This document shows, one piece after another, positions 37,075 through 43,075 of a stretch of 44,521 nucleotides of DNA. Numbering within the stretch: position 1 is the stretch's first letter; every line of letters begins with the position of its first letter. A program made the position numbers and the translations under genes. Below the pieces are notes generated by a model, which saw nothing but the letters and a program-made list of their open reading frames with translations, had not been told where the DNA came from and did not search any database. The stretch comes from Myxococcota bacterium (lineage in GTDB: Bacteria > Myxococcota_A > UBA796 > GCA-2862545), in contig JBCCQY010000062.1 in assembly GCA_039208735.1 (NCBI GenBank), forward strand, positions 1 to 44,521, in the 5' to 3' direction.

Positions 37075-37974
37075 ATGGACGAATGCCCATTCTGTGGCCA
37101 GGACATCGACGACGCATTGGCTCGCTTCGGTGGGACTTGCCCGCACTGTTTCACCGAGATCCCCGGTGAGGAGGCGGCGACCGATCCGGGCGCGGCCCCG
37201 GGCCCCGTGCCTGCCGTCTCGGATCGAAGGCTCCCGATTGCGCTCGCAATTGGGGTCGGTGCCTTCGTTGGCCTGTCTTTGATGATGTTGGCCGGCGTGG
37301 GGTGGCGATGGACCCAACGCGCGCAGGCCTCGACCCCCGTGCTTGACTTCGACGCATTGCCCATCCCCGACGTCGTCGAGGTTGACGCGGCTCCTCCCAA
37401 GGGGGCTTCCTCGGCCCCTCGCGTAGCCCGTGCAGATCGGTTCGTCGGAGGCGGCACCGAGGTGGGCGCAGCGTCGGACGCGGCGAACGCCCTGTCGAAT
37501 GCCACTCCGTCGCGTCGGTCATCCACCGGTCCGCGGCGGGTTCGCTCCGATTCCGGTCGAGCGAGCCTGCCGAAGGTCGGCCCATCGCTGGGCGACCTCG
37601 AACGCAGGGGGACCGCGGCCATCGATTTGAGCCTCGGAGGCGGGACCGTCAATCGTGACGACAACGTCGTCCTCGATGATCCCCTGGCCATCCGAATGAT
37701 GATCGGCGACCGACTCCGTCGAGGCATCGCGGAATTGCGCGGGTGCTACGACCGCCGCCTCAAACAGCGTCCTGACCTTTCCGGCCGATGGAAGCTAACG
37801 TTTACCGTGTCCTCCGAGGGCCGTGCTACCGAGGCGAACCTCGTGGGTCTCGATCGGAAGGATGCCAAACTCGAGCGCTGTCTTGAAGACCATGTGCTGC
37901 GCCGATGGGCCTTCGCGCAGGTCTCCGAACCCACGGAAGTGAGCAAGACGCTTACGTTCCACGTGGGCCGCTAG
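37075..37974 (+). CDS. Zinc-ribbon/TM/AgmX-PglI C-terminal domain protein
   Basis: CPFC...CPHC, one TM helix and C-terminal LRGCYDRRLKQRPDLSG...FTVSSEG...LERCL...W.F. Confidence 0.82.
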   Translation: MDECPFCGQDIDDALARFGGTCPHCFTEIPGEEAATDPGAAPGPVPAVSDRRLPIALAIGVGAFVGLSLMMLAGVGWRWTQRAQASTPVLDFDALPIPDVVEVDAAPPKGASSAPRVARADRFVGGGTEVGAASDAANALSNATPSRRSSTGPRRVRSDSGRASLPKVGPSLGDLERRGTAAIDLSLGGGTVNRDDNVVLDDPLAIRMMIGDRLRRGIAELRGCYDRRLKQRPDLSGRWKLTFTVSSEGRATEANLVGLDRKDAKLERCLEDHVLRRWAFAQVSEPTEVSKTLTFHVGR

Positions 37975-38335
37975 GCGACCAGCGTAGGACCAACGCATCG
38001 GTACCATCCGCGTAGTACCCCCGTCGCGCGCCCACCGGTGACCATCCGTGCGTGGCGTAGAGCGAACGCGCAGCGTGGTTGTCCGTCCGGACTTCGAGGA
38101 AGGCCTGTCGGATTCCGTGCTCGGTGAACCGGTCATGGCAGGCTCGGAGCAGTTGCGCTCCGAGACCTTGCCGCCGATGGCTTCGATGCACGACGATGCG
38201 CAGCAATTCACCCTCGTCAGCGACGACCGAAATCAGGGCAAACCCTCGGTCTGCCAAGCCGAGACCGAGGACCGTCGGTCGACCAAGCAAGGAGGCGAAG
38301 GCCTCGACCGACCAGCCGTCGGGTTCCGCGTCCAT
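37952..38335 (-). CDS. rimI: RimI-like GNAT acetyltransferase (start uncertain; homology seems to extend to ~38390)
   Basis: ELLRIVVH..HRRQGLG, LEVRTDN..A..LY...G and RRGYYADG.DALV. Confidence 0.8.
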   Translation of the reverse strand: MDAEPDGWSVEAFASLLGRPTVLGLGLADRGFALISVVADEGELLRIVVHRSHRRQGLGAQLLRACHDRFTEHGIRQAFLEVRTDNHAARSLYATHGWSPVGARRGYYADGTDALVLRWSPSGPRGT

Positions 38336-38373
38336 CGCGGCCAAGGTGGATGCGTCCGAAGCGTCGACGGTGA

Positions 38374-38895
38374 CTACGGCGTGGATGAGGGCACCGGAGG
38401 AACCCGACGAACGCGGGCGATGGTGCGCAGTCGATCCAAGTGCAGCGTTGCCGCATCTTTGAATGCATCCGCGTTGCCCGGGTCCACCAGCAAGTTGCGC
38501 CCCAGGTACCGGTCGACCACCAAGCGTCGCCGAAGGATGACTTCGAGGCGGGCCTCGTCGGCAGAGATGCGGTCGAGAAACGCGCGCCAGGACCGTCGGT
38601 CGGGGAACTGCGCCCGGACCGCCTCGAGGCGTCGGCGGACGTCCTGGCGCGATGGTTCGTACAGCCGCACATCGGACGCAATTGTTCGGACGATCGCGGC
38701 GTCGATGAGCCGATCCTCGGGGGTTCGCCAGGTGGGATCCCAAAAGGGCGTTCCACTGCGGTCAACCTCGGCGAGCACGGCTTCACGCGCGACGTCACTC
38801 ATGAGAACGAGCTGGCCGTCAACATCAGCCACAATCCGATCGACAACCTCCTGGCCGTTCGCCAGAACCATGCCAAGCAGGGCAAGGATGATCAT
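38374..38895 (-). CDS. Secreted protein resembling the SurA N-terminal chaperone domain
   Basis: Signal peptide, then VVDRIVADVDG..V..SDV; ends L..LR..ARV. Confidence 0.7.
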   Translation of the reverse strand: MIILALLGMVLANGQEVVDRIVADVDGQLVLMSDVAREAVLAEVDRSGTPFWDPTWRTPEDRLIDAAIVRTIASDVRLYEPSRQDVRRRLEAVRAQFPDRRSWRAFLDRISADEARLEVILRRRLVVDRYLGRNLLVDPGNADAFKDAATLHLDRLRTIARVRRVPPVPSSTP

Positions 38896-39072
38896 GTCAG
38901 CGCCGTAACCGACCCGTTTCCCTCGATCACCTGCTGGTGCGGGTTATCGGGGGTGTGGCCGATAGTGGAACCCATAGCTGGCAAATCGAGTCCCGATTCG
39001 AGCATGCGCCTCTCGACGCTGCCGACCCGGGTCATTAGGCATCAGACGCATCATTTGCAGGACGACATCGTC

Positions 39073-39687
39073 ATGAAGGGAACGAAGAGCGACCGAGAGC
39101 TACTGCGCACCCGCGTGAAGGACGCGCTAGGCGATCGCACCCAAAAGCAACTCGAGCAAACGCTCGAGGTATCGGGCGGCACGCTCTCGCGCGTCTTCGG
39201 CGGTCGTCGGAACGTCGATGCAGACTTTCTGCGAGCCCTGGCGGATGCGCTGGACGTCGAGGTCCACCGACTGCTTCACGGCACGGACTTCCTGCTGTTG
39301 TTCGACGACGAAGAACTCCCGCGTGAAGCCGGTGAGGTCGATGTTGTGGCCCCCCTTCCCCCCGCTCCTTCGGAGGGGCCAGCTCCGGTCGACAGCCTTC
39401 CGTCTCGCGGAGGTCCCGCGGCCGATGCCGTTCCCGAAGCGGCTGCAGAAGAGCCGGAAGTGGCTTCCGAGCCCGAGCCCGAACTCGAGGCCATCCCGCC
39501 GTCCGAGGTGGTGACGGAACCCACCATGACGGTGGTGGATCCGCCTGAACCTGAACCGGAACCTGCCTCAAGCTCGAAGCCATCCGACGAGACGGATACC
39601 GTGACCGTCGACGATGCTACGCCTTCCGAGCGACCAGGCCTCGGAGGTCGCATTCGTCGGTTCATCGCGAGAATGTTCGGAGGGTAG
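39073..39687 (+). CDS. XRE-family HTH protein with long acidic/Pro-rich tail
   Basis: TQKQLEQTLEVSGGTLSRVFGGRRN...L..LADALDV...LL; start taken as ATG 39073. Confidence 0.78.
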   Translation: MKGTKSDRELLRTRVKDALGDRTQKQLEQTLEVSGGTLSRVFGGRRNVDADFLRALADALDVEVHRLLHGTDFLLLFDDEELPREAGEVDVVAPLPPAPSEGPAPVDSLPSRGGPAADAVPEAAAEEPEVASEPEPELEAIPPSEVVTEPTMTVVDPPEPEPEPASSSKPSDETDTVTVDDATPSERPGLGGRIRRFIARMFGG

Positions 39688-39692
39688 GTCGC

Positions 39693-41213
39693 ATGGTGGT
39701 TGGGGTTGCGTGGGCGGCATTGGTTGGATGCTCGGGAACGCAGCAAGCCGGTTCGGCCCCCGAAGGCGCGGTGACGCTGGTCATTGGGGGACGAACGGAA
39801 GGCGAAATCGAGCCGTGTGGTTGACCCAAGAACCCTCTGGGCGGTCTGCCCAGGCGCAACACCACACTTGCCTCCCTGCCTGCTGAACGCGTTGTTGTCG
39901 ATGTCGGCGCTTCACTGGACCGCCCTGGGCTGGGCGGCGCCACAGGACCCCTCGACCAACGCCGGGTGAAGGCCGAATTGGTCGCTGAGGGCTACGCGAT
40001 GGGGGGCATCGATGCCATGGCTCTTTCCGCGTCCGACTGGGCCCTGGGGGCCGAGTTCGTGCGCGGTCTCATCACGAAGCACGACCTGCCCATCGTTGCG
40101 GCGAACCTCGTGTGTGACGGGGATGCGCCGTTCCCTCCTTCGCGGACCTTGACCGTGAACGGCCGTCGCATTGGAGTGGTTGGCGTGACGGTGGGTCCGG
40201 TCCCGGGGTGTGAGGTGGCCGATCCGTTGCCTGCGGTGGCGAAGGCGGCGGCCGCGCTTGAGAATGTGGATCTGACCGTTGCCCTTCTGCCGATCGTTCA
40301 AGCGCGTGATGTCGCCCAGGCGTTCACGACGCTCGACAAGAAGCTTGACGTGGACCTCGTTGTCGACGCAACGAACCGGTCGCTATCGGCCCAGCCCCAA
40401 CAACGAGCGGGTGCATGGTCGATCTCCGCCGGTTCTCGAGGGCGTCACCTCGGAGTGGCCACGTTGGTCTTTGGCCAAGGTCCCTGGAGTTTTGAACTTG
40501 GGGCGGGCAACAAGCTTGAGGAGCAGCTGGCCCGCTTCAAGGAGCGCAAGGCCGAAGTGGAACGGTTGGCGGCCGACGCCGACGATGCAGCCAAGTCGCG
40601 CTACCAATCACAGATTACGGCCTACGAACGCCGCATCGGAGAGGTTCAGGATCAACTGAAGGCGGGGAGCAACTCCACCAACCGGATTGCCCTCACGTCG
40701 GTTCCGCTCGATCGAACCGTGGCCGATCACCCTGCGACGTTGAAGATCGTGGAGGCGGGAAAGGAGGCGATCACCACCTTAGGCGGAGCCTCCCCCAAGA
40801 CGTTTGTGACGCGCAAGGTGAAGTCAGGACCCTATGCGGGCGGCGAAGTTTGTGCGGGCTGTCACCCGGGCCCTCATGCGCAATGGTCGCGCACGGGTCA
40901 TGCTCGCGCATGGCAGGCTCTGGTCAATGACAATCGTGCCTTCGACGATGCATGCTGGTCTTGCCACGTGACCGGGGCGCGCAAGCCTGGCGGACCGCAG
41001 ACGGTCAAAGAGACGGGGCCGTTCCGCGACGTGCAGTGTGAGGCCTGTCATGGGCCCGGACGGGCGCATGTCGAGAATCCTGCCGAAGTGAAGCCCGTTC
41101 GCGATCCCGGCCCGGCCGTGTGCACCGAGTGCCACGACGGCGTGCGGGATGGCGGACAGTTCGTGTACGAGGACTACCGGCCCAAGGTCGTTCATGAGGA
41201 TGTGGCCAAGTGA
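39693..41213 (+). CDS. Predicted selenoprotein (506 aa): lipoprotein, UshA-like domain with C-G-U motif, coiled coil and tetraheme c554-like cytochrome c
   Basis: ATG 39693 is in frame with the 39966 ORF: MVVGVAWAALVGC...GEIEPCG[TGA 39822-39824]PKNPLGGLPRR...VVVDVG. Four CxxCH motifs: CAGCH, CWSCH, CEACH, CTECH. Confidence 0.85.
39825..39854 (+). promoter_or_regulatory. Bacterial SECIS element
   Basis: Hairpin CTGGGC-GGTCT-GCCCAG (39837-39853). The loop starts 18 nt after the TGA, with G and U at positions 23 and 24 counting from the U of UGA. Confidence 0.8.
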
Positions 41214-42097
41214 GTGCGGTGCGGACCATCACGGCAGTGCCCGGGGTGCGGGCGGCCCATGCCACCGATGAGGACGGCCAAACGGGCGTCACGGTGCTGC
41301 GGTTTGATGAGGGCGCGCGAGGGGCGGTTTGGATCCCGGGTTCAGCGATCGGGTCTCGCGAGCTAAACGTGCTCGCCGCAGGGCATACCGCGACACGGGT
41401 GCACGGGCTGTGTCTGTCGGGAGGCAGCGCGTTTGGGCTCTCCGCCGCCGACGGCGTGATGGCCGCGTTGCTCGCCGATGGGGTGGGCTACCAGACGGAG
41501 TACGGTCAAGTTCCCATCGTGCCTGCGGCGATCTTGTTCGACCTTCACACCGCCTCGGTGCGTCCAGGACCGACGCTGGGCGAGGCAGCCACGCGAGCTG
41601 CGAGCCGCGAGCCGCTTCCCCAAGGCCGGTTTGGGGCGGGACGGGGCGCTCGAGTGGGCATGGCGTCAGGGACACCAGCCCCCGGTGGCGTGGGCTCGGC
41701 CGCAGTGGAGGTTACGCCGTTCACCATCGGTGCTGTGGCGGCCGTCAACGCCCTGGGTTCGATTCGCGATCCCAAGACGGGTACGTGGGTGGCGGGGGGG
41801 CCGGTCGATTGGAACCAAGCTCCCACGCCCGAGCCACGGCAGCAAACCACCCTCGTTGCGGTGGTGACGGACGCTCCGCTCGACCGAGATGCGGCCACGG
41901 TCATTGCGAAGATGGCGAGTGCGGGCATGGCGCGAGCGATCGAACCGGCCTTCTCTCCGTTCGACGGGGATGTGGTGTTCGCATTTTCGACGCGCGAAGG
42001 GCCCCCGGTAGAGCGGCTCCAGCTGTTGCGACTGGGCGCAGCGGCGGCGGATCTCGTGGCCACGGCCATCGTGCGTGGGGTCCAGCCTCCTGCATGA
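41210..42097 (+). CDS. P1/S58 family peptidase (DmpA-like)
   Basis: ITAVPGV...H, LSGGSAFGL.AADGV, VPIVPAAILFDL and FDGDVVFA; GTGA overlap. Confidence 0.9.
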   Translation: MSAVRTITAVPGVRAAHATDEDGQTGVTVLRFDEGARGAVWIPGSAIGSRELNVLAAGHTATRVHGLCLSGGSAFGLSAADGVMAALLADGVGYQTEYGQVPIVPAAILFDLHTASVRPGPTLGEAATRAASREPLPQGRFGAGRGARVGMASGTPAPGGVGSAAVEVTPFTIGAVAAVNALGSIRDPKTGTWVAGGPVDWNQAPTPEPRQQTTLVAVVTDAPLDRDAATVIAKMASAGMARAIEPAFSPFDGDVVFAFSTREGPPVERLQLLRLGAAAADLVATAIVRGVQPPA

Positions 42098-42112
42098 CGT
42101 TACCCCTTGGCG

Positions 42113-43075
42113 ATGCGCGTCTTGGGGATCGAAACGAGTTGCGATGAAACCGCGGCCGCCGTCGTGGGGGCGGACGGCGTGCTTTCGGATGTGGTGCACT
42201 CCCAACTCGAGCACCTACCGTTCGGGGGCGTGGTGCCAGAACTCGCGGCCCGAGCCCACGTTGAGCGGCTTGGCGCGGTGGTGGACCGGGCGCTCGCCGA
42301 GGCGGGGGTCGAACGACCCGATGCGGTGGCGGCTACGGGCGGGCCTGGACTCATTGGAGCCGTGCTCGTGGGCTTTTCGTGGGCCAAGGCGCTGGCGTGG
42401 GCCTGGGACGTTCCCTTTCGCGCGGTGAACCACCTTGAAGGCCATCTGTTGTCGGCACGAATGGAGGACCCCCCGCCGGCGTGGCCTTTCTTGGGGCTGG
42501 TGGTGAGCGGGGGCCACACCACGCTGTACCTGGCCCACGACCTTGGGCGTTACGAGGTTCTCGGCCAGACCGTCGATGACGCCGCAGGTGAGGCGTTCGA
42601 TAAGGTCGCGCGATTGTTGGGTTTGGGGTATCCCGGGGGGCCCCTCATCGATCGGCTCGCAACCACCGGAAATCCTCACGCCGTCGAATTCCCGCGTCCC
42701 AATCCCGGGGGCCTCGACTGGTCGTTTTCGGGTTTGAAGACCGCGGTTCGGCAGCACCTTCAACGACCCGAGCGGGCCTCTGATGCGGACGTGGCAGCGT
42801 CTTTTCAGGCGGCGGTGATCGATTGCTTGGTGGACCGCATTGAGCGCGCCATGGCGCGGACGGGCGTTCGGCGGTTGGCGTTGGCCGGTGGGGTTGCGGC
42901 CAACCGGGGCTTGCGCGAGCGGGTCGCGAAGCTGGGTGTCGACACCTTCATCCCACCGATCCGGCGTTGCACCGACAACGCCGCGATGATCGCGTTTGCC
43001 GGGCGCTGTCACCTGGTGCAGGGGCGTTGCGATGACCTGTCGCGCGGCGCCGAGCCCGCTTGGGCCATCGCGTGA
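42113..43075 (+). CDS. tsaD: tRNA N6-threonylcarbamoyltransferase subunit TsaD
   Basis: VLGIETSCDET, GGVVPELAARAH, VNHLEGH, VSGGHT, DDAAGEAFDK and CTDNAAMIA. Confidence 0.97.
   Translation: MRVLGIETSCDETAAAVVGADGVLSDVVHSQLEHLPFGGVVPELAARAHVERLGAVVDRALAEAGVERPDAVAATGGPGLIGAVLVGFSWAKALAWAWDVPFRAVNHLEGHLLSARMEDPPPAWPFLGLVVSGGHTTLYLAHDLGRYEVLGQTVDDAAGEAFDKVARLLGLGYPGGPLIDRLATTGNPHAVEFPRPNPGGLDWSFSGLKTAVRQHLQRPERASDADVAASFQAAVIDCLVDRIERAMARTGVRRLALAGGVAANRGLRERVAKLGVDTFIPPIRRCTDNAAMIAFAGRCHLVQGRCDDLSRGAEPAWAIA

Follow-up and report, generated by a model that had tools for sequence, protein, structure and literature searches.

A probable selenocysteine codon unites two called open reading frames into one UshA-like tetraheme protein gene in a Myxococcota bacterium

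The DNA analysed here, referred to below as the window, is a stretch of 44,521 nucleotides with a G+C content of 64%, positions 1 to 44,521 of contig JBCCQY010000062.1 of a Myxococcota bacterium (assembly GCA_039208735.1), and on its plus strand, between positions 39693 and 41213, it carries a gene with an in-frame TGA codon near its 5' end. The list of open reading frames (ORFs) gives at this place a 43-amino-acid ORF (39693..39824, MVVGVAWAALVGCSG...GEIEPCG) and, in the same frame, a 415-amino-acid ORF from the GTG at 39966 to 41213. When TGA is translated as selenocysteine (Sec, U), the frame is open from the ATG at 39693 to the stop TGA at 41211-41213 and encodes 506 residues; the sole in-frame interruption is the TGA at 39822-39824, which is codon 44 and stands in the context GEIEPCG-U-PKNPLGGLPRR. 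The initial annotation of the window had stated that the ORF track starts the protein at 39966, that the same frame extends up to the ATG at 39693 and that the interrupting TGA is codon 44, and both the ORF list and the translation agree with this. It is very probable, judging from the sequence evidence described below, that 39693-41213 on the plus strand is one single gene in which the TGA at 39822-39824 is read as Sec44, the insertion of Sec itself being what we infer. The full coding sequence of this UshA-like tetraheme selenoprotein (39693..41213, plus strand) was assigned from the translation with TGA as U, from the match to the protein family NF041198 and from a full-length alignment of orthologs.

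Two further features were noted around the 5' end of this coding sequence. A Shine-Dalgarno-like GGAGGG was read from the sequence at 39679..39684 (plus strand), 8 nt 5' of the ATG, and its function as such is presumed. The first residues (39693..39731, plus strand) form a predicted lipoprotein signal peptide, MVVGVAWAALVG, which was recognized by pattern match. Bacterial lipoboxes follow the pattern [LVI][ASTVI][GAS]C, and the N-terminus of the protein, MVVGVAWAALVGC, closes on L-V-G-C, where Cys13 is encoded by 39729-39731. Thus the L-V-G-C which had been noticed earlier at the N-terminus is present and fits the lipobox, and a Cys ending a short hydrophobic N-terminus is common to 17 of the 18 orthologs whose aligned sequence reaches that column. 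Translation with TGA as U places the CxU motif, Cys42-Gly43-Sec44, at 39816..39824 (plus strand, TGT GGT TGA).

Downstream of the TGA a hairpin of the selenocysteine insertion sequence (SECIS) type was located at 39836..39854 on the plus strand, on the basis of RNAfold prediction, conservation and its register relative to a known element. The initial annotation had pointed to a hairpin CTGGGC-GGTCT-GCCCAG 3' of the TGA, and exactly these letters were found at 39837-39853, with CTGGGC at 39837-39842, the loop GGTCT at 39843-39847 and GCCCAG at 39848-39853. RNAfold adds a U.G pair between 39836 and 39854, which gives seven predicted pairs (39836-39842 with 39848-39854) closing the GGUCU loop and a folding energy of -11.7 kcal/mol, and the conserved core GGGC-GGUCU-GYCC corresponds to 39839-39851. 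For comparison we have used fdhF of E. coli K-12, the TGA of which is codon 140. In the window 18 nt separate the UGA from GGUC, and the proposal that the element lies in the fdhF register was borne out by direct comparison, since GGTC starts at base 22 (the U of UGA being base 1) in both genes. Both genes also share the letters GGUCUG and have a loop closed by a stem; G23 and U24 of the fdhF SECIS are the positions which we take to be the SelB contacts. Unlike in fdhF, the conserved stem is short, it consists of four invariant or wobble pairs (seven pairs in the window itself), and it is formed without the long lower helix of fdhF.

In order to see what stands at the Sec column in related proteins, 61 genomes of the same order, including the genome of the window, were searched, and 58 of them contained a match. 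The search returned 30 loci, two of which are cut by contig ends before the Sec site, so that 28 loci (the window included) cover it; two of the loci, L039 and L041, are near-identical, and the alignment of orthologs used throughout (A2) has 27 rows, 26 Sec forms and one Cys form. TGA is found at the Sec column in 27 of the 28 loci, in the context GEIEPCG-U-PK.P.GGL[SP]RR, and the remaining locus, L024 from the same genus, has TGC for Cys. All 27 rows of A2 share P41, C42, G43 and P45, with either Sec or Cys between G43 and P45. A wider scan of genome contigs gave 80 loci, among which 13 contain PCG[U/C]P, eight with TGA and five with TGC or TGT; GGTC is at base 22 in seven of the eight PCGUP loci (one of these seven lies on the same contig as L048) versus none of the five PCGCP loci, and the eighth PCGUP locus, L117, has a different downstream sequence. 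The other 67 loci fall outside the strict PCG[UC]P pattern; variants like TCGU or [SP]CGCA occur in a few of these. It had been expected that homologs would have Cys or TGA at this column, and no other residue was encountered in the 28 loci (27 TGA and one TGC) or in the 13 loci of the wider scan. The refuting condition that reads show TGC or TGT was checked on the contigs of four public runs, which show only TGA and no other letter at 39822-39824; one of these runs may be the source of the window DNA and is not independent, and the other three, metagenome runs from two other studies, contain short contigs of related organisms which cover 39797-39862 only and for which no change is listed at the TGA or at the hairpin. 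No RNA data set was listed among the public runs.

Some additional members of the wider family were also observed. Other Sec-bearing branches read LETCG-U-P (L061, L066 and L069, two of them labelled Blastocatellia) and VAPCG-U-P (L117, labelled Eisenbacteria); their downstream hairpins differ and are without GGUCU at base 22. A second full-length paralog, approximately 30-34% identical and free of any in-frame stop, is present in many genomes of the order (e.g. G054:C138:47126-48496, G060:C37:147637-149046 and G046:C82:4144-5550).

The conservation of the hairpin was then compared with that of the protein it lies in. Columns 18-27 after the TGA (GGGCGGTCTG) are invariant in all 27 TGA-bearing sequences, and the proteins encoded by these orthologs are only 36-58% identical to that of the window. 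As a codon control we have taken the columns of A2 that are invariant in the 26 Sec forms and have at least four synonymous codons (n=19). A single codon in 26 of 26 Sec forms was found only at G50, G51 and L52 (GGC, GGT and CTG, respectively), and the other 16 of the 19 columns use two to five codons. These three codons coincide with the 5' stem end and the loop of the hairpin, and of the five other invariant Gly columns, four use GGT only in a minority of sequences. The natural Cys form, L024, reads GGC GGC TTG TCG at the hairpin: the loop and the stem are gone and two of the three frozen codons are altered. Furthermore, when contigs from microbial-mat metagenomes, which belong to other organisms, are aligned to the window, a likeness of at least 85% extends only over 39797-39862, i.e. 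over 65 nt comprising the motif and the hairpin, and therefore the nucleotide conservation of this segment is strong. These observations point to selection at the RNA level at the hairpin, the frozen synonymous sites being the only argument for an RNA element, not compensatory change; natural Cys forms, by the same kind of comparison, appear to have let the SECIS decay. Beside the hairpin, the Gly codon directly 5' of the UGA (39819-39821 in the window) is GGT in 20 of the 26 Sec forms, though most other invariant Gly columns seldom use GGT, and this may be a context effect on recoding.

The presence of a dedicated Sec machinery was examined in the genome of the window, which is available as 9.4 Mb in 288 contigs and is 92.7% complete and 6.15% contaminated. 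A search for selA, selB, selC and selD had been proposed as a check, and all four were found above their cut-offs: the Sec tRNA reached 64.1 bits (Rfam cut-off 47) and was also called as SeC with anticodon tca by ARAGORN, and the scores were 312.9 bits for selB (cut-off 242.25), 451.5 bits for selA (cut-off 267.9) and 372.6 bits for selD (cut-off 125), the last with one in-frame TGA. TGA is still an ordinary stop in this host, and the code is not reassigned; it ends the UshA-like gene itself, the Peptidase_S58 gene and tsaD. Taken with the TGA/Cys column, the fdhF register and the frozen hairpin codons, the Sec machinery argues for the insertion of Sec44 as initially suggested. It was also noticed that the selD of this genome is itself a selenoprotein gene (L018, G000:C188, locus position 1531; ACAG-U-ASKLGP), in which a GC-rich hairpin of 9 bp stands 3' of the TGA; the tip of this hairpin reads GGU, and its distance from the UGA exceeds that in the UshA-like gene by two bases.

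The best NCBIfam match of the 506-residue protein is NF041198, "UshA_like_PCGU", UshA-like (seleno)protein, with E 2.6e-74 and 250.7 bits, where residues 17-492 are placed on profile positions 14-518 of 519. The same model is also matched by all 27 rows of A2 (best E 3.6e-89), the exact P-C-G-U motif is present in the window, Sec alternates with Cys in the homologs as it does in the family, and the length of the model takes in the cytochrome tail, as does the window protein. According to its sequence, the product either belongs to the catalogued NF041198 family with P-C-G-U or is closely related to it as a sister. In the sections of the literature consulted, this family corresponds to the 'COG0737, UshA-like, CxU' selenoproteins (PMC2398784, PMC9312934, PMC13188914). 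Zhang and Gladyshev (2008) counted "COG0737, UshA-like, CxU" as one of the major selenoprotein families in ocean metagenomes and described the UshA-like family as being without obvious assignment to a Cys-based redox family (PMC2398784, consulted sections); a 2022 review lists it as COG0737, CxU (PMC9312934, likewise) and a 2026 review as NF041198, CxU (PMC13188914, likewise), and the consulted sections of these three papers give no function for it. The remark that UshA-like CxU selenoproteins had already been reported from genome surveys is thus in accordance with both the best profile match and the reviews. A literature search combining selenocysteine, multiheme and nucleotidase returned no paper and no description of the architecture, chemistry or function of the family, and NF041198 was named in that literature only in one review table. 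Family 2 of the UshA-like (seleno)proteins, NF049981 (CxxU), was considered as well: it matches the N-terminal 90 residues weakly (E 5.3e-05) and is matched by 19 of the 27 orthologs. Membership of the window protein in NF049981 was rejected, as the score is far under the cut-off (22.8 bits versus 140) and the motif spacing is different, being CxxU there (PMC13188914, consulted sections).

The product consists of two domains joined by a helical arm. The N-terminal domain (approximately residues 26-270; 39768..40502, plus strand) has the 5'-nucleotidase/UshA/SoxB (metallophosphoesterase) fold according to profile and Foldseek searches, and it is followed by a long linker with predicted helices at residues 274-294 and 298-328 (40512..40676, plus strand; secondary structure of the model described below) and by a C-terminal cytochrome c554-like domain (40818..41210, plus strand; Pfam PF13435 and PF09699, profile match 1bvb). 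The latter contains four CxxCH heme-binding motifs, which start at residues 387, 421, 449 and 477 and are encoded on the plus strand by 40851-40865, 40953-40967, 41037-41051 and 41121-41135; their Cys and His columns are invariant in A2, and so are H403, H459 and H501. Pfam recognizes the tail only, as Cytochrome_C554 (PF13435, 48.7 bits, cut-off 20.8) and Paired_CXXCH (PF09699), and at E <= 0.01 it gave no Metallophos or 5_nucleotid_C match in the window protein. The profile of A2 searched against the Protein Data Bank (PDB) matched cytochrome c554 (1bvb, E 1.4e-18) and a multiheme protein (6i5b, E 2e-26), and for the N-terminal domain YfkN, 5'-nucleotidases, SoxB and UshA at E 1e-14 to 1e-6. 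Single-sequence phmmer with residues 1-336 found nothing relevant among the PDB sequences, so the 5'-nucleotidase kinship was visible only by profile and fold search.

An AlphaFold (AF2) model built on A2 has a mean predicted local distance difference test (pLDDT) score of 86.2 and a predicted template modelling (pTM) score of 0.83. Foldseek with this model retrieved the E. coli 5'-nucleotidase 1oie (E 5.1e-16, 280 columns) and SoxB 2wdc (E 1.3e-15), with a probability of 1.00. The first strand of the model is formed by residues 26-32, upstream of the TGA, and in the model the part encoded before the TGA belongs to the fold. The N-terminal domain therefore resembles the 5'-nucleotidase/UshA/SoxB group (COG0737) by fold (Foldseek E 5e-16 to 1e-14) and by profile (E 1e-14 to 1e-10), and shares with it the motifs LEP, GG.aRR, the D of DaG, and aNL. 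In contrast to the UshA family, the helical linker and the heme domain take the place of the C-terminal substrate-binding domain. The tail in turn is like cytochrome c554 of Nitrosomonas (1bvb) by profile, by the PF13435 match and by the four CxxCH motifs, but it is the C-terminal module of a selenoprotein here, whereas c554 is a free-standing electron carrier.

The position of the CxU motif in this fold was deduced from the profile alignment to the Thermus 5'-nucleotidase 2z1a, which places HTNDTHAHLEPV....SGEKTPVGGVARR on ysarveGeiePC....GCPknPlGGLsRR; therefore the Cys-Gly-Sec is situated in the loop directly after the first metallophosphoesterase motif. The dimetal ligand motifs of the family are presumably DxH, GD, GNH(E/D), H and GH, and by the same alignment the window protein, unlike 5'-nucleotidase and UshA, is without all five of them. 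Because the usual ligand positions hold R34 and E36 (D-x-H), A73 (GD), A113 and S114 (GNH), P200 (motif IV His) and T227 (motif V His, GH), the domain would no longer be a dimetal phosphoesterase. More distant orthologs retain a His at the motif IV and V positions (5 of the 27 rows of A2 each). Certain acidic and Cys residues are highly conserved: D115, C141 and C173 in 27 of 27 rows each, E38 and E40 in 26 of 27 each, and D70 in 23 of 27.

On this basis the following sequence of events can be suggested. The hairpin at 39836-39854 would bring in SelB and the UGA would be decoded as Sec44; the product, likely a lipoprotein, would be exported across the inner membrane and would comprise the 5'-nucleotidase-fold domain, the long helical linker and the c554-like domain with its four heme-binding motifs; and the Cys42-Gly-Sec44 loop might act as the reactive centre of a periplasmic oxidoreductase which exchanges electrons through the four hemes. 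The redox role is suggested by motif logic and is proposed tentatively, as quite possible. With somewhat greater reserve, we consider it possible that the family represents an uncharacterised type of periplasmic selenoenzyme: the dimetal hydrolase site of an old 5'-nucleotidase/SoxB-type fold would have disappeared, a reactive Cys-Gly-Sec loop wired via a helical arm to four c-type hemes would have been acquired, and the enzyme could thereby oxidise or reduce, outside the cytoplasm, a small substrate of the sulfur or selenium kind or a similar one.

Cys42 and Sec44 could form this reactive centre in two ways, either by passing electrons to the hemes as a selenenylsulfide pair or by binding a metal in a rebuilt site. 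In the second case Sec is inserted all the same, but no selenenylsulfide pair is formed, and Cys42 and Sec44 would bind metal in a rebuilt dimetal pocket together with E36, E38, E40, D70 and D115. In formate dehydrogenase and in [NiFeSe] hydrogenase Sec is known to coordinate a metal, and the conservation of E38, E40, D115 and D70 given above, all at or beside former motif positions, speaks for such a pocket, as do the His residues kept by distant orthologs at motifs IV and V. The canonical ligands are nevertheless gone from the window protein, and the CxU spacing is usually redox in other selenoproteins as far as the consulted sections of PMC2398784, PMC9312934 and PMC13188914 describe them; the metal-ligand arrangement is regarded as possible, but somewhat less likely than the redox pair.

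Several observations weigh against the interpretation of the locus as a whole and have to be set beside the evidence for it. The folding energy of the hairpin is unexceptional (z = -0.26; an equal or better fold was obtained with 75 of 200 shuffled sequences), and its covariation is weak, with a two-sided change in one of the seven pairs and a score which 131 of 500 shuffles attained as well. The three outer pairs, at the bottom of the stem, do not form in 7-10 of 26 distinct sequences, RNAalifold retains only the four inner pairs, and no Rfam family matches, in particular no SECIS family, as a search of 39600-40100 at E <= 10 returned chance-level matches only. Covariation was consequently rejected as a proof of the hairpin, since it gave no significant support, and the argument was moved to the frozen synonymous sites. 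G50, G51, L52, R54 and R55 are conserved in non-seleno 5'-nucleotidases too (GG.aRR), and the amino acid conservation at these positions is therefore inherited and not due to the SECIS. The close orthologs include a single Cys form. With 250.7 bits, the match to NF041198 remains below the curated equivalog cut-off of 275, which the orthologs of the order straddle. The signal peptide is short and its n-region contains no Lys or Arg, that is, no positively charged start, and the CGU loop was modelled less confidently (mean pLDDT 72 for residues 41-50). That the redox role is argued from the logic of the motifs has to be counted here, too.

A part of these points would also be consistent with the TGA being a true stop, in which case the locus would encode a 43-residue lipopeptide and a cytochrome restarted at the GTG at 39966, or would be a dead gene. 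Standard gene calling yields exactly these 43- and 415-amino-acid ORFs, TGA serves as a stop elsewhere and also at the end of the same gene, and the hairpin has no exceptional thermodynamic stability. Against a stop, the stretch from the TGA to 39966 encodes PK.P.GGL.RR, VVDxG and QRR.KA, which are conserved in the family and are in frame in all orthologs, and the TGA recurs at one and the same column in 27 of the 28 loci, the exception having Cys. Initiation at 39966 would moreover yield a product with neither the signal peptide which a c-type cytochrome needs nor the first strands of the fold, and the frame is kept in 27 genomes, unlike in a pseudogene. Translation termination at this codon is thus very unlikely. 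Still less likely is it that the TGA is read as an amino acid other than Sec (Trp, Cys or Gly, by near-cognate read-through or in a reassigned code) or is an assembly error for TGC, since, although low-level insertion of Cys or Trp at UGA occurs in bacteria and the existing Cys forms indicate that Cys is functional at the site, TGA ends three Pfam-supported genes of the window, the genome possesses the complete Sec machinery, only the TGA forms have their hairpin nucleotides frozen, and the same TGA is found in 26 other assemblies and in the contigs of four runs.

In practice, the reading of codon 44 as Sec leads to a correction of the gene model. As the initial annotation had stated, standard annotation misses the selenoprotein: default callers give the 43-residue ORF and a 415-residue "cytochrome" without export signal in place of the 506-residue selenoprotein, and through such a miscalled gene the selenoproteome of this marine, myxobacteria-like lineage is undercounted. 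It should be emphasized that the gene is not of a new kind, as its family has been catalogued since 2008; the result is a sound annotation fix and opens no new class. The additions to what is known of the family are modest, namely that the hydrolase metal ligands are gone, that the Cys-Gly-Sec is located in the loop after the old motif I, and that the SECIS has apparently decayed in the Cys forms. The family is widespread, with the matches in nearly all searched genomes of the order and with labels of many phyla among the relatives: the close relatives are labelled Myxococcota, Deltaproteobacteria or Oligoflexia, besides some plainly odd labels, and the distant ones come from many phyla.

The selenoprotein gene is flanked upstream by a gene for a helix-turn-helix (HTH) protein and by a GNAT/rimI-like gene on the minus strand, and downstream by a Peptidase_S58 gene (41210..42097, plus strand), whose GTG start overlaps the stop codon of the selenoprotein gene (GTGA, 41210-41213), and then by tsaD. 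Of 29 loci in the relatives, 10 have S58 downstream of the ortholog; tsaD is likewise present in 10 and the HTH protein in 5, and this synteny favours the view that the gene has been inherited vertically at a fixed housekeeping site. The neighbourhood was also considered as a clue to function and was discarded, because the neighbours are housekeeping genes and no redox partner is among them. The order rimI-like GNAT (minus strand), HTH, UshA-like selenoprotein, Peptidase_S58 and tsaD (37952-43075 in the window) is common across families of the order. In the upstream ORF (38440-39687), HTH_31 is recognized only at residues 229-276 and is accompanied by a Pro/Glu/Ala-rich tail; the true start of this ORF is probably internal, near MKGTKSDRELL.

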